Assembly (NCBI GenBank): GCA_030167145.1
Contig: CP126532.1
Coordinates: 4,530,001-4,562,000 of the forward strand
Reading direction: 5' to 3'
DNA length: 32,000 bases
From: Ktedonobacterales bacterium
Lineage (GTDB): Bacteria; Chloroflexota; Ktedonobacteria; Ktedonobacterales; JADMIN01
Every line of letters starts with the position of its first letter. Position 1 is the stretch's first letter. The translations under genes were made by a program, and so were the position numbers. A model generated the notes under the pieces. The model made no database searches. It was not told the origin of the DNA and saw nothing but the letters and a program-made list of their open reading frames with translations. Below are positions 2,207-19,649 of the stretch, piece after piece.

Positions 2207-2809
2207 TCAGAGGAAGGCGGGCAGCGGCATGAGCAGGGCAAAGGCCATGGTGGCGACGCCAACGGTCCAGCCCAGCAGCACCTGGCCGGGCGTGTGGCGC
2301 TTCAAGACGACGCGCGACCAGCCGACCAGCAGCGCCGCGATGGTGGCGATGACGGCGAGGCTGATATAGGGCACGGCGAGCCAGAGCAGTGTGGCGCTGG
2401 CAGCGGCGCCGGTGGCGTGCGCGCTGACCTTGTAGGTGAAGTTGATGAGACCGTTGACGACGTTGGCGAGCACCAGCGCGATGGCGGAGCGGGTGGCGAC
2501 CGGCGGCGCGTTGATGTGCGTGTAGACGAAGGCGAGCAGCGCCATGCACGCGATGCCGAAGGGGTAGAGCAGATAGCGCTGGCGGCGGACGCTGACGTCC
2601 AGATCCGTCCACTTGTGGCGTAGCACTTGAATGCCCACGAGCAGGGCGATGGGCAGCGTGGTGAGCACTATGGCCAGCGCGAGGTCATCCAGTGTGGTGC
2701 TGAGGGACGATGAGGCCGTGTAGATGGCGATGCCGAGAACAACAAGGGGGAAGGCGATGGGGTGAATGATAGCTGACACCCAGCGGGCGACCTCATAGCG
2801 GGTCGTCAT
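2207..2809 (-). CDS. PAP2-superfamily-like membrane protein (putative lipid phosphatase)
   Basis: The protein is multi-TM and carries KVSAHATG and SRVVLKRHTPGQV motifs resembling PAP2 C2/C3 boxes. The start is at M33 of the ORF (MTTRYEV), with GGAG upstream. Confidence 0.6.
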   Translation of the reverse strand: MTTRYEVARWVSAIIHPIAFPLVVLGIAIYTASSSLSTTLDDLALAIVLTTLPIALLVGIQVLRHKWTDLDVSVRRQRYLLYPFGIACMALLAFVYTHINAPPVATRSAIALVLANVVNGLINFTYKVSAHATGAAASATLLWLAVPYISLAVIATIAALLVGWSRVVLKRHTPGQVLLGWTVGVATMAFALLMPLPAFL

Positions 2810-3024
2810 TTTTAGCTCCGAATTCTCCAGATGCATCGCTGCACTTTTCCTCCATGCCACGCATGCGCGGGGACGGCAAGTCGTCTCGGCCATTGTATGG
2901 GCCACAGAAAGGGCATGTCAATGTACCGACGACTATATCCAACGGATCATTGATGGATGATAAGTGCCGATCGCGCTAATTCGAGGTAGCCATATGTCGC
3001 GAAAGACGATGCGATGGCAGATAG

Positions 3025-3255
3025 CTATCCTATCGGCTCCATGCGTTTCACCTGGCTGAGCCGCGCGGCAAAGGCGAACACCGCCAGCAGGTCATCGCGT
3101 TCGAGGTCTTCGTAGTCGGCAAGAATCTCTTCTATCGTCATGCCCGAACTCAAGAGTTCTAAAAGCATCTCCACTGGATAGCGCAAGCCACGGACAACTG
3201 GCTTGCCATGGTCAATCGCCGGGTCCATGGTGATACGGTCGAGTAGCTCAGACAT
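3025..3255 (-). CDS. DUF433 domain protein (antitoxin-like HTH)
   Basis: The 76-aa product has HGKPVVRGLRYPVEMLLELLSSGMTIEEILADYEDLERDDLLAVFAFAA, the characteristic DUF433 pattern. Confidence 0.8.
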   Translation of the reverse strand: MSELLDRITMDPAIDHGKPVVRGLRYPVEMLLELLSSGMTIEEILADYEDLERDDLLAVFAFAARLSQVKRMEPIG

Positions 3256-3324
3256 TGTCAGACCTTCACTCCAACGCCAGACACATTGGTCTGCCCTGGC
3301 GACATCATAGCCCGCTATATAGCT

Positions 3325-4416
3325 TCACATCCCCACGTACTTCGCATACACACTGCGGGCGACGGCGGGATCGTCGGTGCCCTTAATGATCGCGCGGGCA
3401 TCGGGGAAGAGCGTCACATCGTAGTTATCCACACGCAGGCGCAGCAGGAAGCCGTTGCTGGCGACCTCGCCGATGGCGCGCAGCCGCTCCGCCAGGGCAT
3501 CCAGGTCGAGCGTGCCCACGGTCCCGCGCGGCGGGCGCACCTGCACGGCGTTGCGGCCACAGAGCGAGACGCCGCTCTCGTCTATGGTGGCGTCGAGGTA
3601 GTCGTATTCGCCGCGACCACAGGCCGGGCAATCCTCCTGGCGCGGCAACTCGATGCGCTCGAAGGTGTTTTCCCACAGGTCCACCCAGGTCATGCCGCGC
3701 GCGAGCTTGTCGCTGCCCACCAGGAGCTTGAGCGCCTCGGTGGAGGCGATGCCGGCGATAGCGCCGACGATGCCATTGAGCACGCCCGCCGTGTCGCAGG
3801 TGGGCGTCGTGCCGGGGAGTGGGCGTTCGGGGAAGACGCAGCGCAAGCAGGCCGTATCGCGCGGCAGCACGTTCATCGTCACGCCGTAGCCCGCGATCAC
3901 GCCACTATAGATCCATGGGACGCTTGCGCGCAGGCAGGCGTCGTTGAGCAGGTAGCGTGTTTCGAAGTTGTCGGTGCCATCCAGCACGAGGTCCATGCCG
4001 TCCAGCAGCGCCTCGATGTTGTCGGCGGTGACATCGGTCATCAGCGGCTCGACGGTGATCAGGCTGTTCACGCGGCTCAGCGTCTGGGCGGCGGCGATGG
4101 CTTTGGGCATGCCGCGGCGCACATCCTCTTCATCGAAGAGCACCTGTCGCTGAAGATTGTTGCCCTCGACGTAATCGCGGTCGGCGATGCGCAGATGGCC
4201 CACGCCCGCGCGGGCGAGATTGTTGGCGAGCACCGTGCCCAGCGCGCCGCAGCCGACAATCAGCACACGCCCGCGCGTGATGCGCTCCTGGCCATCGCGG
4301 CGAATGCCCGCGAAGAGCGTCTGGCGGGCGTAGCGTTCGCTCGCGCTGAGGCTGCGCTCAGCGTGTGGATCGGCGTGCAGGTTGGTTTGGAGGGGAAGAA
4401 CGCGAGAATCGGCCAT
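3325..4416 (-). CDS. ThiF/MoeB-family E1-like adenylyltransferase with C-terminal extension
   Basis: RYARQTLF...VLIVGCGALGTVLANNLARAGVG is the Rossmann/ATP motif, and NLQRQVLF is also present. Cys pairs occur at TPTCDTAG and CPACG. The tail FPDARAIIKGTDDPAVARSVYAKYVG is typical of the Bacillus ThiF type. The start is at M45, with AGGAG upstream. Confidence 0.85.
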   Translation of the reverse strand: MADSRVLPLQTNLHADPHAERSLSASERYARQTLFAGIRRDGQERITRGRVLIVGCGALGTVLANNLARAGVGHLRIADRDYVEGNNLQRQVLFDEEDVRRGMPKAIAAAQTLSRVNSLITVEPLMTDVTADNIEALLDGMDLVLDGTDNFETRYLLNDACLRASVPWIYSGVIAGYGVTMNVLPRDTACLRCVFPERPLPGTTPTCDTAGVLNGIVGAIAGIASTEALKLLVGSDKLARGMTWVDLWENTFERIELPRQEDCPACGRGEYDYLDATIDESGVSLCGRNAVQVRPPRGTVGTLDLDALAERLRAIGEVASNGFLLRLRVDNYDVTLFPDARAIIKGTDDPAVARSVYAKYVGM

Positions 4417-4561
4417 GGCGATAGCTCCTGTATCCACCCAACGGTACGGCCTGAGTATAGGATTTTTGGGTGTACAGGCCGGGACGCTGTTGATATGTTG
4501 TACTGTATCACAACAGACTCCATGACCCAAATGAACTGCTGAGAGCATCCGAAATAGCTGC

Positions 4562-4590
4562 TTGGCGCGTGGCGCGGGCTATGGTACAAT
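4562..4590 (+). promoter_or_regulatory. candidate sigma70 promoter upstream of the receiver genes
   Basis: TTGGCG (4562..4567), a 17-nt spacer, then TACAAT (4585..4590), preceded by TGg (extended -10-like). It lies about 130 nt upstream of the 4721 ATG. Confidence 0.45.
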
Positions 4591-4720
4591 AGTATCCATA
4601 TCAACCACGCGGCGCGAGTATGAGGAACGCCATTCGGGCAGGCTGAAGGAACTGCAACGCCGGGGATAGCGTCTTAGAATATGCGGGCGGGGGCGGAACG
4701 GGTATCCTGGGGGGTGGCAC

Positions 4721-5230
4721 ATGTCTGGTTCGGCAGTGGAAAATCCGGAGAGCGGCGTGCGCTCTGCCTCCGGTGCGGTGGGTTCAGCGCAGAACAAAAA
4801 GGTGTTGGTGATTGACGATAATCCGACAATTGTTGAATTGATCCGGCATGCGGTGGGGCTACAGGGCAAGTATGACGTGGTGGTGGCCTATGACGGCGTG
4901 CAAGGGCTGGAGCGGTTCTATCACGAGCGGCCCGATTGCGTGATCGTAGACGTGAAGATGCCGCGCATGGACGGGTATCAGGTGGTGCGGTGCCTTCGCG
5001 GTGATAGCACTTCGGCGCATACGCCGCTCATTATTCTGAGCGCGATGTACGAGGAAGATGACCGGTTGACAGGTCTGCTTTCGGGTGTGGATGAGTATTT
5101 GCCCAAACCGTTCAAGCCCAGTGTGCTCTACGCCACACTGGAGCGCGTGATGCGGATCACGCCCGAAGAGCGCGAGCAGCGGATTCAGCAATTGGCCATT
5201 GCGGATAGCCCAAATAGTGGGGAGTCGTAA
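4721..5230 (+). CDS. single-domain response regulator (receiver only)
   Basis: Canonical CheY-like signature residues are present: KKVLVIDDNP..., VIVDVKMPRMDG (phospho-Asp), LIILSA and LPKPF (Lys). There is no output domain. Confidence 0.9.
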   Translation: MSGSAVENPESGVRSASGAVGSAQNKKVLVIDDNPTIVELIRHAVGLQGKYDVVVAYDGVQGLERFYHERPDCVIVDVKMPRMDGYQVVRCLRGDSTSAHTPLIILSAMYEEDDRLTGLLSGVDEYLPKPFKPSVLYATLERVMRITPEEREQRIQQLAIADSPNSGES

Positions 5231-5325
5231 CCTGGTTAGCTACTGCTCGTTACAGTAGACAAGGACGAGCGACTCAGAACAGATGTTCAGTGGGCCACTG
5301 GGGGTGCGGCGTGGCGGCGGAGAAG

Positions 5326-5751
5326 ATGGTTGAGGGGCGTATGCGAACTCAGCAACTGCGGGTGCTGGTCGTCGAGAGCAACGCCACAGCGCGCGAGCGG
5401 TTACATTCGGCGCTGGGCGATGGCTATTCGCTGCGCTTCGTCAGCGGGTCGAGCGAGGCGCTGACGGAGTTGCGCGATAATCCACCAGACCTCCTGGTAA
5501 GTGAAGTTGATCTGCCGGATGGCGACGGCCTGCGCCTCTGCGAACAGGTGCGCTCGCTGCCCAAGGCGGAACACTTGCCGATTATGCTGGTGACGGAGCG
5601 GGGCAGCATTCAAGATAAGGTGGCGGGCTTCCAGGCGGGCGCCGATGATTACGTGGTGAAGCCGGTAGATGTGCGCTTATTCCATGCGCGCGTGCGCCTG
5701 CTCTATCGCATCAAGGGTCTGGAATCACCAGAGCGTGACCGCGCATCGTAA
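5326..5751 (+). CDS. single-domain response regulator (receiver only), divergent acidic pocket
   Basis: LRVLVVESNA (ES where DD is usual), LLVSEVDLPDGDG, IMLVTE and VVKPV identify a receiver domain. The start is ambiguous between ATG 5326 and ATG 5341, and both have short GGAG-like motifs upstream. Confidence 0.8.
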   Translation: MVEGRMRTQQLRVLVVESNATARERLHSALGDGYSLRFVSGSSEALTELRDNPPDLLVSEVDLPDGDGLRLCEQVRSLPKAEHLPIMLVTERGSIQDKVAGFQAGADDYVVKPVDVRLFHARVRLLYRIKGLESPERDRAS

Positions 5752-5963
5752 GCGCGCGTATCTAGCCGCGCGGGTGATGCAACGGAATACGCGGCCTGAG
5801 CTTCGTTTCGCCTCTCATCAGAACACTTTTCGCATAGCGCGACTCATAAGTTCCATTGCCTCTCGCACACCGCGCATACCGTACATCCACTATTCTGGAC
5901 TTCACTTGCGCATATCCGCCAGAACTCGCGCCGAAATCCACACCGTGAATTTTCGCTCAGCTA

Positions 5964-5992
5964 TTTACGCCTGCGAGCAGACATGCTACACT
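5964..5992 (+). promoter_or_regulatory. candidate sigma70 promoter for the Nudix-4TM gene
   Basis: TTTACG (5964..5969), a 17-nt spacer, then TACACT (5987..5992). It lies about 60 nt upstream of the 6051 ATG, which has a GAGGAGG RBS. Confidence 0.4.
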
Positions 5993-6050
5993 CCACATGC
6001 ACCGCCTGCTATGGCTCTCGCGATTTGGCGCATTGTGAGGAGGATGGGTA

Positions 6051-7442
6051 ATGGAGGAGCGGACACGGAGCGAAGAAGTCTTCCACGGCAAGCTGATTCG
6101 GGTGCGCGTGGATACGCTGCCAGAACCAATTGGCGGTACACAGCGGTACGAGATCGTCGAACATCCCGATGCGGTGGCGATTGTCGCCGCTCAGCCAACG
6201 GCGGTCAATGGCGGGCCTGATAACTTTCAGGTGCTGATGGTGCGCCAGCAACGGCCAGCCGTCGGCAAAGACCTGTGGGAGATTCCCGCCGGGCTGGTGA
6301 ATCCCACTGATGGCGACCCCATGGTTACGGCTGCGCGCGAACTGCGCGAAGAGACCGGCTACGACGCCGACGTGTTGCAGATGCTGGCACGCGAGCTATC
6401 CTCACCGGGGTTTACTACCGAGGCCATCACCATCTTTCTGGCGACGGGCGTGCGCCCCGCGCCAGGGGCCATCGCCGGCCGCCCCACCGACACGACTGAG
6501 ATCGAACATGTGCAGTGGGTGCCGCTGGACGATGCGCTGCGCGCCTGCCAGAGCGGCGAGATTGTGGATGGCAAAACGCTGCTTGGCCTCGCGCTCGCCG
6601 CAAACGCACTGAAGAAATCATCCGGTTCCGCAAAGGGAGATAGTGCCGTGGACCCAACCAACGCGCCCAATGGCGCACCGATACTCGCCGATGACGATAG
6701 TACGGTCGCTGCCGCAGCCGGGGGTGGCATCAAAGCTGATACGACGCTGAAGCTCGAAACGATGCTGATGAACGAATTCAACTACGTGAGCGTCACGGCC
6801 TACCAGGCGCAGGAAGATCGCACGCGCATGTTCAATCTCTATCTGCTGCTGATTGGCGTGGTCGCGTCTGCACTTGGCGCGATCTACCAGTTCGGCCAGC
6901 AGCACGGCAATGAGACGACTTCGTTGCGCGGACTGGTGGTGTTACTTTTGGCTCTCGGTGGTGTGCTTGGCTTTATCTTTCTCGTCAACCTGGTCAGGTT
7001 CCGTCAGGCGTGGCGCCAGAGCGCGATTGCGATGAACACCATCAAGGAGTTCTATATTGAGCAGTTCAGAGCGCCGTTCCCCGACGTGGAAAAAGCCTTC
7101 GGTTGGCGTTTGAACACTATTCCCGCTGGTGAAAAGCTCGGCAACCCGACTACCGTTGTCTGCACCACCGTTGTCGTTCTGGGAAGCATCTGCCTTGCTG
7201 GCGCCACCTATGAAGCCTATGATCCGTGGCTGCAACCACTCATCGGCTCATTCGCTGGAGCATGGGAAGCCATCTTGTTCGTTTTTTTCATCGCTGTTTT
7301 CCTTCAGATGCTCTTCTTTTTCGTCGAGTTGCGTCATGGTAAAGATCGGAAGGCGAAGGCCGAAGTTTCTGCTCGATTTGGCTCAAGCGTAGAGGTATCT
7401 AGGTGGGAGAACGGGCAGCGGCTCCCTCCGAAATCCAAATAG
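6051..7442 (+). CDS. Nudix hydrolase (ADP-ribose pyrophosphatase-like) fused to a C-terminal 4-TM domain of unknown family
   Basis: The N-terminal part EEVFHGKLIRVRVDTL...EIVEHPDAVAIVA and the Nudix box GLVNPTDGDPMVTAARELREETGY (REx2EExGY intact) identify the Nudix domain. A low-complexity linker spans residues about 190-235. Four hydrophobic helices and the motif FGWRLNTIPAG follow. Confidence 0.85.
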   Translation: MEERTRSEEVFHGKLIRVRVDTLPEPIGGTQRYEIVEHPDAVAIVAAQPTAVNGGPDNFQVLMVRQQRPAVGKDLWEIPAGLVNPTDGDPMVTAARELREETGYDADVLQMLARELSSPGFTTEAITIFLATGVRPAPGAIAGRPTDTTEIEHVQWVPLDDALRACQSGEIVDGKTLLGLALAANALKKSSGSAKGDSAVDPTNAPNGAPILADDDSTVAAAAGGGIKADTTLKLETMLMNEFNYVSVTAYQAQEDRTRMFNLYLLLIGVVASALGAIYQFGQQHGNETTSLRGLVVLLLALGGVLGFIFLVNLVRFRQAWRQSAIAMNTIKEFYIEQFRAPFPDVEKAFGWRLNTIPAGEKLGNPTTVVCTTVVVLGSICLAGATYEAYDPWLQPLIGSFAGAWEAILFVFFIAVFLQMLFFFVELRHGKDRKAKAEVSARFGSSVEVSRWENGQRLPPKSK

Positions 7443-7614
7443 CGTCACTCCCGCTAATCCCAGGTGCGGGGCACAAAAAACGGCGAAGCGGGCCTATTCT
7501 TCCGGTTGATAGACAAACATGCAGTTCACGTGATCCATGCCGCATCATGGTAGCGCGGCAACGCTGATAAACTGACATACTGCGGGTACTTGACACCGAA
7601 AAGGAACGCCCACG

Positions 7615-8352
7615 ATGTCTGTAGACTCCGGAAATCCTTCCAACAATCCTCTCGTGCCCCTTGAAAGCACTGTTGCTACCGAACTTCTCGATGCTCATCA
7701 TGCCAAAGAGGGCGATCATCTCAACATTGAGGCGATGCTCGTAGAAGAATTCAAATATGCGCGTGAAACGGCGATGCAATCTAGCCAGGATCTGATGCGT
7801 ATTTTTGACCGGTATCTCGTCCTGGTTGGTGGCGCGGCGGTGACATTTGTTGGAGCGACCTACCAATTAAATCAGATCGGAGCGAAGACTGATTTTCTGC
7901 CTCTTATCGCCGCATCAATGATGACAATTCTCGGATTTTTGGGCATTGTCTTCTTTATCGTCTTGATTCGGATTCGCCAATCTACACGCGAAAGTATGAT
8001 TACCATGAGTGTGCTCAAGGAGCGCTACCTCCAGGAGTTTCCAGAGTACGCTCGATCTTTTCGTTGGCGTTTGACTACGGTTCCCGCTGGTGCGCGCGTG
8101 GGGGGTGTCGTATATCTGGTCTGCACAACCGTCGCGTTTGTTGATAGTTTGTGTTTCGGTGGTGGCGCATACCTACTGTATCAAGACAAACTCGGCGCCA
8201 CTCTTCCCACCTTCATATCCTGGCAAGCGGAGTTATTCGCTGCAATTATTTGCGTTATCGCCCTTTCACTCCAACTCGTGTATTTCACATATGCGCTTAG
8301 CCGACGGCGTGGCAGCAAGATGATCTTGAAGGCCAACCAATTGAACTGGTAA
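7615..8352 (+). CDS. 4-TM membrane protein, paralog of the C-terminal module of the preceding Nudix fusion
   Basis: It aligns by eye with residues about 235-450 of the upstream protein. Shared motifs are MLVEEFKY/MLMNEFNY, GATYQ/GAIYQ, IRIRQ/VRFRQ, FRWRLTTVPAG/FGWRLNTIPAG and LVCTTVAF/VVCTTVVV. An AAAGGAA RBS precedes the start. The sequence is visibly more A/T-rich than its surroundings. Confidence 0.8.
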   Translation: MSVDSGNPSNNPLVPLESTVATELLDAHHAKEGDHLNIEAMLVEEFKYARETAMQSSQDLMRIFDRYLVLVGGAAVTFVGATYQLNQIGAKTDFLPLIAASMMTILGFLGIVFFIVLIRIRQSTRESMITMSVLKERYLQEFPEYARSFRWRLTTVPAGARVGGVVYLVCTTVAFVDSLCFGGGAYLLYQDKLGATLPTFISWQAELFAAIICVIALSLQLVYFTYALSRRRGSKMILKANQLNW

Positions 8353-8373
8353 TGACCTGAGGCGTGGAAGGTG

Positions 8374-8547
8374 CTAGGCCATTATATCTTCCGCGCTTGC
8401 CTCTTCCGCACTCGCCTCTGCCATATTCGCGCCTTCCTCGCGCACGCGCGCCAGGATGCCTGTGCGGTCGCGCAGCGGCGCGCCGGAGCCACCGCGCCGC
8501 CACAGGGTCAATTCGGCGGCGATGGCCAGCGCGATCTCGTCGGGGGT
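8374..8547 (-). pseudogene. detached duplicate of the 3' end (last about 57 codons) of the xdhC-family gene
   Basis: In the xdhC reading frame it would read TPDEIALAIAAELTLWRRGGSGAPLRDRTGILARVREEGANMAEASAEEASAEDIMA*. It has no start codon or 5' part, and its upstream end abuts the vapC stop codon. Confidence 0.75.
8387..8547. repeat. direct repeat, copy A (161 bp, of which the 132-bp core 8416..8547 is identical to 9437..9568)
   Basis: Base-by-base comparison shows the 132-bp core is identical. The distal 20-29 bp differ by one substitution and a 9-bp indel (gcactcgcc). The plus-frame track translations 8371.. and 9371.. share CHIRAFLAHARQDACAVAQRRAGATAPPQGQFGGDGQRDLVGG. Confidence 0.95.
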
Positions 8548-8550
8548 GTG

Positions 8551-9021
8551 CTAGGGTGCATTTTGCGCAGGCGCCCAATGGACACGCGACTCGTGTTTCC
8601 CCACGCTATTGATAAATCGCTCATCCCCAGTCCAAAGCTCAATATCTTCCAGTTCGGCGAGTGCGAGATACATCATGTCATAGGCGCGCTGGGTTTTATG
8701 CGTCTTTGCTAGTTCCCATGCGCGCAGGTGCAGATCATCGCGATCAATCCGCGTAATTCTCAAATCATTGAAAGACGAAAACGCACGTTCTCCTTCTTCA
8801 GGCGTAAGCTTGCCTGTAGCAACACGCAAGCGAATGACCGAGGTGACTTCGGCATACAAAAGGGCAGGACCTACAACGTGTACACCCGTACTGGCCCAAC
8901 TCGTCCATAGGCTTTCGGTATTGGGATCGCGCTCGTAGGGCAAGAGCAGATGCAACACAAGCGAGGCGTCCACGCAGAGTCGTATTTGGTTTGGCGCATT
9001 GTTCTGGAGTGCGGTAGGCAT
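8551..9021 (-). CDS. vapC: PIN-domain toxin VapC
   Basis: The 156-aa product has PIN acidic residues in context: CVDASLV, LYAEVTSV, AYDMMYLALA and LWTGDERF. Its ATG overlaps the upstream antitoxin stop (ATGA at 9021). Confidence 0.85.
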   Translation of the reverse strand: MPTALQNNAPNQIRLCVDASLVLHLLLPYERDPNTESLWTSWASTGVHVVGPALLYAEVTSVIRLRVATGKLTPEEGERAFSSFNDLRITRIDRDDLHLRAWELAKTHKTQRAYDMMYLALAELEDIELWTGDERFINSVGKHESRVHWAPAQNAP

Positions 9022-9308
9022 CAGGCGTGATTTCCCTGATGTGCAGACTGGTCGAGTTCGTTGAGCCGCCCGTCACGAACCATGTCCAGGTCGTCCTCCA
9101 CCGAGCCAAAAGATAGGCCATCGGTGAGCAGCCGAGCGCGAATGCGTTCCCGCGCTTCTATCGTTCGGCGAACCGTCTCGACACTCAGTCCCTCCGTATG
9201 TGTCTTGCGCAAGACAGTGGGGAGCGCATCCAGAAGCTCAGTGCGCTCGTCATCAGTAAGCTGCGCGATTTCTTCTAGCATGCGATGTACACGTATACTT
9301 GCCATCAT
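9021..9308 (-). CDS. vapB: VapB-type antitoxin (addiction-module component)
   Basis: The product is 95 aa starting MMASIRVHRMLEEIAQLTDDERTELLDALPTVL. GGGAG lies upstream. It overlaps vapC by 4 bp. The longer 167-aa track ORF extends into the repeat and is Arg-rich nonsense. Confidence 0.7.
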   Translation of the reverse strand: MMASIRVHRMLEEIAQLTDDERTELLDALPTVLRKTHTEGLSVETVRRTIEARERIRARLLTDGLSFGSVEDDLDMVRDGRLNELDQSAHQGNHA

Positions 9309-9403
9309 CAGTCTCCCTTGCCTGGTAGGTAATACCACCATTCGCTTGTGCCATACGGGTCTATCAGGCAGTGTCTCCGCACATGCTACCACAGATACCG
9401 CGC

Positions 9404-10267
9404 TCAGATAGCCGCCTCTTCCGCGCTCGCCTCTTCCTCTGCCATATTCGCGCCTTCCTCGCGCACGCGCGCCAGGATGCCTGTGCGGTCGCGCAGCGGC
9501 GCGCCGGAGCCACCGCGCCGCCACAGGGTCAATTCGGCGGCGATGGCCAGCGCGATCTCGTCGGGGGTTTCCGCGCCGAGGTCCAGCCCAATCGGCGCGG
9601 CCACTCGCGCCAGGTCGTCCGGGGCAACGCCTTCGCGCAGCAGTGTGCGGAAGATGACGCGCACTTTGCTCTGGCTGCCGATCATGCCGATATAGCCCGC
9701 AGTGGTTTCAAGCGCGGCGCGCAGCGCATCTTTATCAGTGCGGTGGCCACGCGTGACGATGACGATGGCCGATACGCTATCGGGGCGCTGCTCGCGCAGC
9801 AATTCGGCAATCTCGCCGGTCTTGGTGATGACGCTGCCAGGGGTGTGAGCCGCGCGCACAACCTCGGTGCGGTCGTCCAGCAAGGTGACACGCCAGCCGA
9901 GCGGAACCGCGAGCCGGGCCAAAGCCTGCGCGACATAGCCCGACCCAGCGACCAGCAAGCGTGGCTCAGGGCGTAGCGGCTCGGCGAAGATTTCCAGCGT
10001 CGCGCCGCAGCTTCCCACGCTCTCGCCGGTGTCGGGATCGAGGTGATAGGTGAGCAGTTCCGGCTCGCCCGCCGCCAGGATTCGCAATCCGTCTTCACGG
10101 GCGCGCGCATCTGTGGATGCGCCCTGGAGCGTGCCGGTGAGGCTGCCATTGCCGCGCACCAGCAGGCGTGTGCCTGGCGCACAAGGCGCGGCGCCATGGA
10201 CGCGGACGACGGTTAGCAGCGCGACTGGCTCGCCGTGGGCGAGGGCGGCGGCAATCTCAGAGAACAT
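9404..10267 (-). CDS. XdhC/CoxI-family accessory protein (molybdo-enzyme maturation factor family)
   Basis: MFSEIAAALAHGEPVALLTVVRVHGAAPCAPGTRLLV is the N-terminal XdhC domain. LLVAGSGYVAQALARLAVPLGWRVTLLDDR is the Rossmann domain. An AGGAGG RBS precedes the start. Confidence 0.85.
   Translation of the reverse strand: MFSEIAAALAHGEPVALLTVVRVHGAAPCAPGTRLLVRGNGSLTGTLQGASTDARAREDGLRILAAGEPELLTYHLDPDTGESVGSCGATLEIFAEPLRPEPRLLVAGSGYVAQALARLAVPLGWRVTLLDDRTEVVRAAHTPGSVITKTGEIAELLREQRPDSVSAIVIVTRGHRTDKDALRAALETTAGYIGMIGSQSKVRVIFRTLLREGVAPDDLARVAAPIGLDLGAETPDEIALAIAAELTLWRRGGSGAPLRDRTGILARVREEGANMAEEEASAEEAAI
9417..9568. repeat. direct repeat, copy B (inside the intact xdhC-family gene 3' end)
   Basis: See copy A. 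The two copies are offset by 1021 bp. Confidence 0.95.
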
Positions 10268-17261: not shown

Positions 17262-19649
17262 ATGAACTGTCCTAATTGTCAGGCCCCGCTCGTCCCTGGC
17301 GCCACATTCTGCGTGCAATGCGGTACGCGCCTCGCGCCCGATGCGCCAGAGGCGGCGCCACCCACTCCCACCCCAGAGGTGGCGCCCACATACCCAGCTG
17401 CGCCTCCTCCGCCTCCGATGTCGGCGCCACCACCTCCGATGTCCGTGCCATTGTCCTATCAGCCGCAAACGTCTCCACCTGCACAACCAGCATACACTAC
17501 TCCGCCGTCGCAGCCCTTCTACGGTCAGCCACCCGCGCCACCTGCACAACCAGCGTACACTACTCCACCATCGCAGCCGCTCTACGGCCAGCCGCCATCG
17601 CAGCCGCTCTACGGCCAGCCGCCATCGCAGCCGCCCTATGGCCAACCTGCGTACAGCGCGCCGCCATCGCAGCCGCTCTACACAACACCACCTTCACAAC
17701 CAGTGTATGCGCCTCCGCCGTCGCAGCCGCTCTACAGCCAGCCAGCCGCGCCCTCACAACCTCTATTCAGCACGGTGTTCGGACCAGACGCCGACCCCAT
17801 GGGCGCGCCAGCGGCCCCCTCCACGCCCTTGCAAGAGTACATGACGCGGAATCTGCCGCGCCAGTATGCCCTGAACAAGTGGTTTACCGCGCTACTCGGC
17901 GCTATCGCGGCGGTTATCAGCGGACTCATCCTCACCGCTCTGGCGCAATCACTGTGGGGCAATGCCATAAAGGGGCTGCTCGGGCTGGCTCCTACACCGG
18001 CGAGCATCAGTTCAACCCTGGATAGCTATGGGCAGGCGCTGCTTACCCCTGACCTGCTGAAGCTCTTCGCGATCGAGCATCACGTCCCATTGGTAATCAG
18101 CGCGAGCGTATCCGCAGGCGGCGGCCCGGTGAACGCTTCACTCGGCGGCGACGTAACCCTCAATCTGCCGCTGACTGGCCTGATCATCATACCCGCGCTG
18201 GCGCTGACCCTCGGTGGCTATGTTTCTGCCACCAGCGGATATACCCATCAGGCGCGCTATGCCATTGCGCGCGGCGCGCTCATTGCGCCCTTCTATGCTG
18301 TGGCGACGGCGATCCTCGCCGCAATGGGATCGAGCAGCATCAGCGGTGGCCTGCTGAGTGAATCAGGCTCGGTGACGATTGCGCCAGCAGTATTTCCCGC
18401 TATCATCTATGGATTGCTCTGGGGCGCCATCTTTGGCGCATTGGGTGGCTGGATTCACCATTCAGGCAGGACGTGGCTTTCATCGGCGGTTCAATCGCTT
18501 CAATCGGTCCAAACGCTCCAGCGCAAGCGCGCCGCGGGCGCCCTCGCAGGCGCGGTGGCGGCATATCTCTGTGGCGTGCTGCTGTTCATTGCGGCTGGTA
18601 TTGGCGGCATCGCCTTTCTGCTCATCCACACCGCCGCCACGACCACAGTCAATGTCACACAGTTGCAGTCGGGCACGCAGGGCAATCCGGCGCTGATCGC
18701 ATTCCTCGCCATTACGATGGCGCCGGTGCTGGCGGTGTGGGCGCTGGCGGTCGCCTCTGGCGCGCCGCTACAGACCTTCACCTCGATCCCCGGAGGCTCG
18801 GGCTCTTCCGGCACGACTTCGATTGGCCTCATTGGCACGCACCAGGCCATACCGGGTCTCCTCTGGCTCATCGTGCTGATTCCGGCCATCGCCTACATCG
18901 CTGGTGGGCGCATCGCGGCGCGGGTCGCGCAGGCTGATCGCCCGGATAGCGCATTCATCGCTGGCGCATTGATGGCGGTCCCATTGAGCATCATCACCGC
19001 CGCTGCCGCCTGGCTCACCTCGGTCAGCTTCGACATCAGCTTCCTCGGCCAGAGCGGCAGCGTGGGCTTCTCGCCGTCCATCGGCGGAACCTTCCTCGCG
19101 GTGCTCATTTTTGGGGCAGTCGTGGGCGGCATCGGCGGGGTCAGCTACCTGCGCGCGCCGGGTCTCGGAGAACTGCCGCGCATCGTACTGATACCCTTCC
19201 GGCCCATCGGCGCGGCACTCAACCCGCTGCTCGACCGGCTCACCGGCGCGCCCGCGGGCCAGCCACGCAGCGCGGCGCGGCGGTGGGTCTATGATGCCGT
19301 GCTGGCGGCAGTGATCCTGGGTGTCGCTACCATCGTGCTCAACATCATCAACACGCCGTTAGCGCCTAGCGCGCCCTTCTCGCTGCTCAGCGGGCTGGAC
19401 CAGTGGGTCGGCGCGTTGCTCGGCGCACTGCCGATCTGCTACTTGATTGGCGCGCTCATAGTGCTATTCACTGGCTCCGCACAGTCTCCGGCGACTGTGG
19501 CAAGTGCGTCTGGGGGCATACCAGTGGCCGTGCCCGTGACCGCGCCCGGCAGCATCGCCTTCACCTACCCGCCAGCGCCTTTGGGGCAGATGCCCGGATA
19601 TCCACCGCAAGGCGTGGGCGGCGACACTCCACAGCTACCAACATCCTGA
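17262..19649 (+). CDS. zinc-ribbon protein with P/Q/Y-rich repeat region and about 11 TM helices (unknown family)
   Basis: The zinc ribbon is CPNCQAPLVPGATFCVQCG. About 150 aa of PSQPLYGQP-type repeats follow. The long Gly/Ala-rich polytopic region matches no family motif I recognise. A CAGGAGG RBS precedes the start. Confidence 0.8.
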   Translation: MNCPNCQAPLVPGATFCVQCGTRLAPDAPEAAPPTPTPEVAPTYPAAPPPPPMSAPPPPMSVPLSYQPQTSPPAQPAYTTPPSQPFYGQPPAPPAQPAYTTPPSQPLYGQPPSQPLYGQPPSQPPYGQPAYSAPPSQPLYTTPPSQPVYAPPPSQPLYSQPAAPSQPLFSTVFGPDADPMGAPAAPSTPLQEYMTRNLPRQYALNKWFTALLGAIAAVISGLILTALAQSLWGNAIKGLLGLAPTPASISSTLDSYGQALLTPDLLKLFAIEHHVPLVISASVSAGGGPVNASLGGDVTLNLPLTGLIIIPALALTLGGYVSATSGYTHQARYAIARGALIAPFYAVATAILAAMGSSSISGGLLSESGSVTIAPAVFPAIIYGLLWGAIFGALGGWIHHSGRTWLSSAVQSLQSVQTLQRKRAAGALAGAVAAYLCGVLLFIAAGIGGIAFLLIHTAATTTVNVTQLQSGTQGNPALIAFLAITMAPVLAVWALAVASGAPLQTFTSIPGGSGSSGTTSIGLIGTHQAIPGLLWLIVLIPAIAYIAGGRIAARVAQADRPDSAFIAGALMAVPLSIITAAAAWLTSVSFDISFLGQSGSVGFSPSIGGTFLAVLIFGAVVGGIGGVSYLRAPGLGELPRIVLIPFRPIGAALNPLLDRLTGAPAGQPRSAARRWVYDAVLAAVILGVATIVLNIINTPLAPSAPFSLLSGLDQWVGALLGALPICYLIGALIVLFTGSAQSPATVASASGGIPVAVPVTAPGSIAFTYPPAPLGQMPGYPPQGVGGDTPQLPTS
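17565..17645 (+). repeat. 27-bp coding tandem repeat x3 (PPSQPLYGQ), the core of a longer degenerate repeat tract (about 17455..17775)
   Basis: cc(a/g)ccatcgcagccgctctacggccag is repeated head to tail at 17565, 17592 and 17619. The third copy is imperfect. Confidence 0.9.

Follow-up and report, generated by a model that had tools for sequence, protein, structure and literature searches.

Insertion with long target duplication is a mode of gene acquisition that was found, by genome comparison, for restriction-modification gene complexes (Nobusato et al. 2000, Gene 259:99; Furuta, Abe & Kobayashi 2010, PMC2853133). Such insertions carry no mobility genes, are flanked by direct repeats longer than 30 bp and have an empty site in a relative; the repeats often span the start or the stop of the target gene, which stays intact, and DNA breakage by the restriction enzyme was proposed as their shared cause (PMC2853133). 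For toxin-antitoxin (TA) pairs, the way in which they integrate remains unclear according to a comparative study from 2026, which proposes that the streamlining of islands leaves TA islets and that these spread when flanking core genes recombine by homology (Belot et al. 2026, PMC13617665). Here, we analysed a vapBC TA cassette that lies directly behind an xdhC-family gene in a stretch of 32,000 nucleotides (nt) of Ktedonobacterales DNA (contig CP126532.1, positions 4,530,001 to 4,562,000; the whole stretch is called the window below), and that is flanked by two copies of the xdhC 3' region. The best-matching precedent of this locus is the insertion with long target duplication of restriction-modification modules. 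On this reading the mode of insertion would be a known one, and the TA cargo in place of the restriction-modification genes would be new.

The likeness to restriction-modification insertions concerns both the cargo and the site: a small module of the addiction type that lacks mobility genes, target-derived direct repeats that vary in length and exceed 30 bp, a single-copy empty site in a relative, an insert whose composition is unlike that of the host, and a target gene that remains intact. However, the cargo here is a type II TA pair, the toxin of which is a predicted RNase (PIN domain), and thus DNA double-strand breakage cannot come from the vapBC cargo. Moreover, the distal repeat copy leads into a second foreign gene, and not into native DNA. 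In our literature search, no report of the long-target-duplication mode for TA systems was found, and nothing specific on flanking target-gene duplications around TA cassettes.

Among integrative elements, e14 and phage 21 rebuild the 3' end of a protein gene, icd, in E. coli. The window shares with them the order of an intact target, an element and, beyond the element, a headless 3' end; in both cases the repeats exceed 100 bp and one copy has a variant tail. Whereas e14 and phage 21 encode an integrase, supply the new gene end and displace the native one, here there is no integrase and the intact gene keeps its native end. In Campbell integration (insertion-duplication mutagenesis), a non-replicating circle is inserted, its homology is duplicated on both sides of the insert, and the event can be reverted by recombination between the repeats. 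The window likewise has a homology segment on both sides of its insert, with reversion possible; however, Campbell integration belongs to laboratory constructs or to a plasmid/phage pathway, and a natural 1-kb circle made of a TA pair and a host gene end is purely putative here. With the TA islets the locus has in common that it is compact, chromosomal and TA-only, that it has no mobile-element genes and lies in a variable place between core genes, and that it is apparently recent; the islet model, by contrast, is a clean replacement via two homologous flanks, and flanking target duplication is not described in it (PMC13617665).

Organisation of the cassette and of its flanking repeats

Positions are counted from the first letter of the window, lengths of proteins are in amino acids (aa), and GC is the guanine-plus-cytosine content. 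L089 is the contig of the nearest relative, described below.

9404..10267, minus strand: intact xdhC-family gene, 287 aa, with its native tail (tail B); Pfam domains XdhC_CoxI and XdhC_C
9436..9568, minus strand: repeat copy B, xdhC codons 234-278, colinear with the L089 orthologue
9309..9403, minus strand: leader of the vapBC operon, 95 nt; DNA specific to the window from 1 nt past the xdhC stop in the L089 alignment
9021..9308, minus strand: vapB antitoxin gene, 95 aa, after the Shine-Dalgarno-like AAGGGAGA; predicted from conservation only
8551..9021, minus strand: vapC toxin gene, 156 aa, full length; Pfam PIN PF01850, E=2.9e-10
8548..8555, no strand: 8-mer GTGCTAGG, first copy; contains the vapC stop codon and abuts the repeat boundary
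8374..8547, minus strand: headless xdhC fragment, 57 codons, with a variant tail (tail A) and its own TAG stop, in frame with vapC
8415..8547, minus strand: repeat copy A, the body of this headless pseudo-copy; GC 0.695, close to that of native xdhC and different from that of the foreign genes on either side
8387..8414, minus strand: degenerate continuation of copy A in 15-nt units of the GCGAGYGCGGAAGAG type; homology with 9417-9435 stops here
8371..8378, no strand: 8-mer GTGCTAGG, second copy; contains the fragment stop codon

Read along the minus strand, xdhC (10267 to 9404) is followed by the 95-nt leader, vapB, vapC, 3 nt and the headless fragment (8547 to 8374). The segments 8415-8547 and 9436-9568 are direct repeats, identical at 133/133 nt and 1,021 nt apart from start to start. 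The only other repeat family of at least 30 nt in the window is a coding tandem repeat at 17444-17770. Past the 133-nt core, homology extends outward to about 8387/9417 with a 9-nt (or, by alignment, 6-nt) indel and one or two substitutions, and the alignment of this extension is ambiguous because the region consists of 15-nt units. Together with the degenerate extension, copies A and B are identical at 151/161 positions; beyond it, about 20-30 nt past the 3' end of the core, they are unrelated, and the DNA that follows tail A has no significant similarity to that which follows tail B.

Much of this anatomy had been proposed in a preliminary description made from the sequence alone. The base-for-base identity of the repeats, given there as 132 nt from 8416, stands, but the length is 133 nt from 8415; the outward similarity to 8387/9417, with a substitution and a 9-bp indel, was found again by our alignment. 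Copy B was taken for the real 3' end of the intact xdhC-family gene, which is confirmed by the Pfam domains and by the colinearity with L089: the XdhC_C domain ends at residue 246, and the repeat begins at codon 234, within the last helix of this domain. Copy A is, as proposed, part of a headless piece of 57 codons with a variant C-terminus and a stop codon. This C-terminus (tail A) differs from that of xdhC and ends in AEASAEEASAEDIMA before the stop, and the fragment is annotated in the source genome as a 45-aa hypothetical protein. Also confirmed were a single vapB-vapC operon between the repeats, with no other gene there, and a vapC stop codon (8551-8553) that lies 3 nt from the repeat junction.

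The 8-mer GTGCTAGG is present only twice in the window, and the pair brackets the pseudo-copy plus 8 nt, with a TAG (minus strand) in each copy; this bracketing has a p of ~0.05 in a generic shuffle test and is suggestive or marginal only. The reading frame of the fragment continues that of vapC: the TAG is followed by a CAC codon and then by TPDEIAL..., and read-through of the vapC stop would add 58 residues. The shared frame is probably fortuitous, a chance product of the junction. At the proximal cassette junction, directly after the xdhC stop (9373-9403, minus strand), GCGGCTATCTGAG is followed by its near-duplicate CGCGGTATCTGTGG in a tandem-like arrangement, and this local repeat is not found in the L089 orthologue.

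A repeat of 133 bp is, as had been remarked before, far too long for the target-site duplication of a transposase. We rejected a transposon or insertion sequence, as there is no transposase, the cassette ends have no inverted repeats, and the 133-bp repeat compares with target duplications of 2-15 bp. An integron cassette was rejected as well, for vapC is followed by xdhC coding sequence and no inverted-repeat (attC) structure was reported there. Recombinase and transposase domains are absent from every gene of the 32-kb window; domain searches of all window genes thus agree with the earlier remark that the window has no integrase, transposase or recombinase. There is also no tRNA gene in the window, and Rfam and tRNA scans of the region were empty.

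Support of the repeat by short-read contigs

The window is part of a 5.07-Mb contig of the Joint Genome Institute (JGI) metagenome 3300045419, deposited as a Ktedonobacterales metagenome-assembled genome. This origin speaks for an assembly artefact, in which the chromosome would have a single 133-nt copy and the long-read assembly would have duplicated it or merged a separate molecule. For a short-read check we used the Logan contigs of run SRR22113990, which may or may not come from the same biological sample. These contigs match positions 8518-9465 and 2615-8444 of the window at 100%, and each stops exactly 30 nt (k-1) within a repeat copy. Such breaks are typical of a k=31 graph at a true repeat that is entered by two paths and left by two; contig ends placed 30 nt inside the repeat thus indicate that the reads contain the repeat in two distinct contexts. 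Of the four repeat junctions, three are seen in the short-read contigs (the unitigs of the run carry the tail A context, the tail B context and the vapC-repeat junction), and the fourth is needed for the intact xdhC and is colinear with L089. Furthermore, a 1-kb circle without a replication gene is implausible as a free replicon. The concern about an artefact, raised already with the preliminary description, is answered by this short-read support for two repeat contexts at three of the four ends, and we regard an artefact as extremely unlikely.

Empty site in relatives and origin of the duplicated gene end

On the plus strand, two genes with transmembrane (TM) segments are convergent on the fragment (GC3 is GC at third codon positions):

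7615..8352, plus strand: 4-TM gene, 245 aa, convergent on the fragment; GC 0.495, GC3 0.52; absent from the L089 site
6051..7442, plus strand: NUDIX-TM gene, Pfam NUDIX; ancestral convergent neighbour of xdhC (L004, L005, L089)

The nearest relative, L089, is a 1,093-nt contig from farmland (JX_farmland). Its xdhC has 92.0% nucleotide identity to that of the window over 864/864 aligned positions, without gaps, and it was the only relative above 76% identity in the XdhC protein search. The similarity ends 1 nt past the xdhC stop. In L089, 14 nt past xdhC, there is the end of a convergent open reading frame (ORF) which matches NUDIX-TM residues 443-459 (E=0.001), and not the 4-TM protein. Since the xdhC end runs straight to this NUDIX-TM-like end, L089 is without vapBC, without the fragment and without the 4-TM gene. 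The site is empty, with a single repeat copy, in L089 and likewise in L004 and L005, where xdhC is directly convergent on NUDIX-TM. Downstream of xdhC, vapBC is lacking in 12 Ktedonobacterales genomes whose xdhC has 53-73% identity. The empty sites bear out the earlier proposal that vapBC is inserted relative to its relatives; however, the form of empty site that had been predicted, a single xdhC end beside the 4-TM gene, did not hold, as the nearest relative shows the NUDIX-TM end instead.

Between L089 and the window xdhC there are 17/133 mismatches in the repeat segment and 2/32 in the tail. Tail B on the intact gene is therefore native, as it matches the L089 tail at 30/32 positions. At all 17 positions of the 133 nt where L089 differs, copies A and B agree with each other, and these lineage-specific bases indicate that copy A comes from the lineage's own xdhC. 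Judging from these substitutions, the duplication, or the last conversion between the copies, would postdate the split from L089 by far. For the tail after copy A there is no native counterpart; it leads into the 4-TM flank, which is also missing in L089. No full-length xdhC with tail A was found in 15 billion proteins, where the 90% cluster consists of the window protein and L089 only. An exact DNA scan of JGI metagenome contigs with a 26-nt piece of the repeat gave 0 matches and no intermediates.

Direct repeats recur at cassettes of the VapC family

Among 5.8 billion clustered proteins, no other VapC with more than 72% identity was found. Homologues at 60-72% identity lie in unrelated contexts, and at five closer vapBC homologue loci in this range there are no flanking repeats. 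On plasmids the identity is 36% at most, and in phages there was no VapC. The search for the same vapBC unit elsewhere, suggested in the preliminary description, thus came back empty, with no near-identical vapC in the databases searched. The lack of a near-identical VapC, the unrelated contexts of the homologues and the distance of the plasmid relatives together give no sign of a currently multiplying element.

In a recurrence scan, we searched metagenome contigs with an alignment of the VapC family as the query and compared the flank upstream of vapB with the flank just after vapC (63 usable loci); 237 pseudo-cassettes placed in 80 xdhC loci served as the control, under the same score threshold. 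Direct repeats that join both flanks were present in 6/63 VapC-family loci, which are distant relatives, as compared to 1/237 controls, and inverted repeats of comparable score in 0/63 loci. The six recurrent repeats have 49-211 aligned nt at 72-92% identity; measured from the vapC stop, they start at -3 to 85 nt, and at -3 to 34 nt in four of these loci, which have differing target genes. The loci, each with the positions of its two repeat copies, are:

L132, 1-61/881-941: purD 5' end duplicated; the vapC stop overlaps the purD start codon
L165, 338-544/1470-1676: lgt 5' end duplicated; 74 nt at 93% within 210 nt at 80%
L170, 2170-2377/3350-3550: 5' end of a Bac_transf sugar transferase gene duplicated; 40 nt at 95% within 211 nt at 72%
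L123, 1794-1905/2708-2820: C-terminal 35-50 codons of the coding segment just upstream of vapB; segment common to L129
L129, 1189-1261/2115-2187: C-terminal 35-50 codons of the coding segment just upstream of vapB; segment common to L123
L142, 1935-1983/2879-2927: small paralogous ORFs; may be a different case

At L132, L165 and L170 an intact gene contains one copy, and a fragment across the cassette from it makes up the other. Among the recurrent loci the antitoxins vary (Phd/YefM-like, helix-turn-helix, ribbon-helix-helix-like), while the toxin family is constant. Repeats in L100, L126, L130, L148 and L158 were rejected as tandem or similar to repetitive extragenic palindromes (REP-like), as paralogous genes, or as not bracketing the cassette. 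It can be concluded from the family scan that the architecture of the window is one instance of a recurrent pattern, and this family-level recurrence is the most useful product of our analysis.

The close fit between repeat and vapC stop also bears on the possibility that the repeats are attL and attR of an integrase-bearing island at the xdhC 3' end, of which later deletions spared only the addictive vapBC. Long direct repeats at the 3' end of a gene are a hallmark of such elements, and streamlining has been proposed to leave TA-only islets (PMC13617665). However, the distal deletion would have to end no more than 3 nt from both the vapC stop and the att boundary, with similar tightness in four of the six loci. 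The window has no recombinase, no other island gene and no tRNA gene; foreign DNA begins 1 nt past the stop of an intact gene whose tail is native and not supplied by the element; and no copy of the supposed element occurs elsewhere, the homologues being in unrelated contexts. The attL/attR-like arrangement considered in the preliminary description is therefore disfavoured: the intact gene carries its native tail (30/32 to L089), L089 has neither the distal tail nor the distal flank, and no integrase is present. The two wider frames offered there, a minimal mobile TA module or a remnant of a larger island, are both reasonable as frames, and the specific case of an integrase island worn down to vapBC seems very unlikely to us.

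Proposed insertion of vapBC with duplication of the xdhC end

The explanation that we tentatively favour, and hold with some reserve, is that foreign vapBC was joined after the native xdhC stop by a host process which duplicated the xdhC 3' region, with a second event at the 4-TM gene. The cassette would have been joined directly behind the stop codon by host recombination or repair, without a dedicated site-specific recombinase, and in the joining a second copy of about 150-165 bp from the 3' region of the recipient's own xdhC would have been placed beyond the cassette. As a result of this far-side duplication, one xdhC would stay intact and a headless pseudo-copy would start 3 nt past the vapC stop. 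In the second event the 4-TM gene may have been brought in or rearranged against the pseudo-copy, the last 13 nt of which would have been replaced, and a cluster of small changes would have been left at the breakpoint. VapC is predicted to act as a PIN RNase toxin restrained by VapB, and the 133-bp perfect repeats could be used by RecA for deletion or for the formation of a circle, and could likewise serve tandem amplification and homology-based re-integration. A longer-lived toxin would penalise loss of the cassette, so that the islet could persist without a mobility gene.

The insert holds an addiction module, with vapB and vapC as its only genes and no mobile-element gene, and its flanking direct repeats are well above 30 bp (133 nt, perfect). 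The view that vapBC is a recombinase-free islet of recent acquisition, and that the duplicated target gene end on its flanks was made by recombination, is partly supported.

Several points weigh against such an insertion. Copy A continues into the foreign 4-TM flank and not into the native tail and downstream DNA, which is not what a strict target duplication would leave, and it is for this reason that a second event has to be assumed. The L089 contig reaches only 96 nt past xdhC and is 8% diverged. The recurrence was found in metagenome contigs, for one VapC family and against a control from other loci. The pathway of long target duplication has never been established, even for restriction-modification systems. 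Finally, the differences between the two copies are packed into about 30 nt at one end (0/133, then an indel and one or two substitutions), and two alleles explain this packing as well as breakpoint errors or slippage of the 15-nt units do.

Two such alleles would meet in a Campbell-type single crossover, in which a conspecific circle or concatemer with an xdhC 3' end (tail B) and vapBC would have entered a tail-A/4-TM recipient via the 133-bp identity. Host RecA would be the sole enzyme needed, and the captured gene end would be the homology handle. The geometry is exact (L-T-tailB-vapBC-T-tailA), and the abrupt passage from 133/133 to a diverged tail resembles the edge that a recombining core would have against two old alleles flanking it. 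The ancestral xdhC/NUDIX-TM arrangement is mimicked by copy A and its tail A, which face a convergent TM gene, and L007 has a TM-only gene in that place; at L165 and L170 a core of high identity lies in homology of lower identity, as expected of a crossover between diverged copies. On the other hand, two structural alleles are needed in one species, and there is no tail-A full-length xdhC in 15 billion proteins. Tail B is ancestral, so the presumed recipient allele must be a derived one; the junction of the vapC end with the repeat start would still demand an illegitimate circularisation; and the GTGCTAGG copies that flank copy A would be a coincidence. The Campbell integration of the preliminary description thus fits in its geometry, but the tail-A/4-TM recipient allele that it requires was not in the databases searched, and we consider it possible, if doubtful.

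The base composition of the locus would also suit another order of events. The vapBC genes and the 4-TM gene are compositionally foreign, with a GC3 of 0.58 for vapB, 0.54 for vapC and 0.52 for the 4-TM gene versus 0.78 for xdhC and 0.69-0.81 for the neighbouring genes, and the fragment between them is native-like. It could be that a single foreign segment of ~1.8 kb brought both vapBC and the 4-TM gene to a place between convergent core genes, and that a 169-nt xdhC-templated piece was inserted later at the vapC/4-TM junction during break repair or template switching; in a variant, the 1,021-nt unit would have been duplicated in tandem and the second vapBC then lost. Such a patch would account for the atypical GC3 that vapBC and the 4-TM gene share on either side of the native-like piece. 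The pseudo-copy plus 8 nt is bracketed by the sole two window copies of GTGCTAGG, and without the piece a clean convergent vapC/4-TM junction remains. However, the p for the 8-mer is only ~0.05 in the generic shuffle test, templated patches of such size with flanking duplications are not established in bacteria, and the six other family loci with a like duplicate right after vapC would be left unexplained. We find a later patch decidedly unlikely.

Long target duplication and addiction modules

If vapBC entered by insertion with duplication of the xdhC end, as we favour, the locus is a fresh example of this mode, with 0 substitutions in 133 bp, a closed genome and an empty site in a relative. 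Seven loci, namely the window and the six of the family scan, suggest that the long-target-duplication route of restriction-modification systems also serves a TA family. As the toxin of this family is a predicted RNase and not a DNase, the duplication is argued from host recombination or repair, or from selection for an intact target, and not from restriction cuts. A wider generalisation would be that cassettes of the VapC family are recombinase-free mobile units, which enter the ends of housekeeping genes by a host route (with a target duplication of 50-200 bp or with a carried gene-end handle), that their repeats serve excision, amplification and re-entry, and that addiction blocks their loss; this we think unlikely. 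Were it true, long target duplication would be a general feature of the life cycle of addiction modules, independent of DNA cleavage by the cargo, and this would contradict the explanation proposed for restriction-modification systems.

Genes of the cassette and its neighbours

In an alignment of 13 VapC homologues, D18, E58 and D115 are invariant and D133 nearly so, and the C-terminus aligns with those of the homologues. The vapB stop and the vapC start overlap in ATGA, and the vapB-vapC pairing is kept in the homologous operons of L085, L087, L092 and L093. For VapB there was no match in Pfam or PADLOC, and a PDB profile search gave no convincing match; the match to NCBIfam VapB15 is weak (E=0.003) and below the cut-off. 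PADLOC had no match for vapBC either. VapB has motifs in common with its homologues on Ktedonobacterales contigs, namely the N-terminal RVEhMLDEIarLS..E..EL..LP.VL and the C-terminal GS...DLD.VRD.RL.

The vapBC leader contains one further feature:

9373..9381, minus strand: candidate extended -10 box TGGTAGCAT, within the vapBC leader; candidate only

A consensus promoter scan of this leader found nothing. Across homologous leaders, TAGCAT/TACAAT followed by GTGCGG was considered as a conserved promoter or operator and rejected, the similarity not being significant. Because the leader similarities were not significant and the promoter scan was empty, the claim of a defined cassette promoter was dropped.

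The 4-TM protein is distantly paralogous to the TM half of the NUDIX-TM protein encoded next to it (34% identity by tblastn), and a k-mer protein search with it returned no homologue other than itself. An origin of its gene by tandem duplication of the NUDIX-TM/xdhC junction was rejected, as the gene order is incompatible with it. TM-only relatives beside xdhC are likewise found in L007, L009 and L013.

Elsewhere in the window, a lone 76-aa DUF433 gene is located at ~3025-3255 (minus strand) between a ThiF and a PAP2 gene, with no obvious toxin partner. The DUF433 domain is often found in antitoxin-like partners of PIN-like toxins. The coding tandem repeat at 17444-17770 is an array with a period of 27 nt in a 795-aa ORF (17262-19649), and it encodes a stretch rich in proline and glutamine (..PPSQPLYGQP..).

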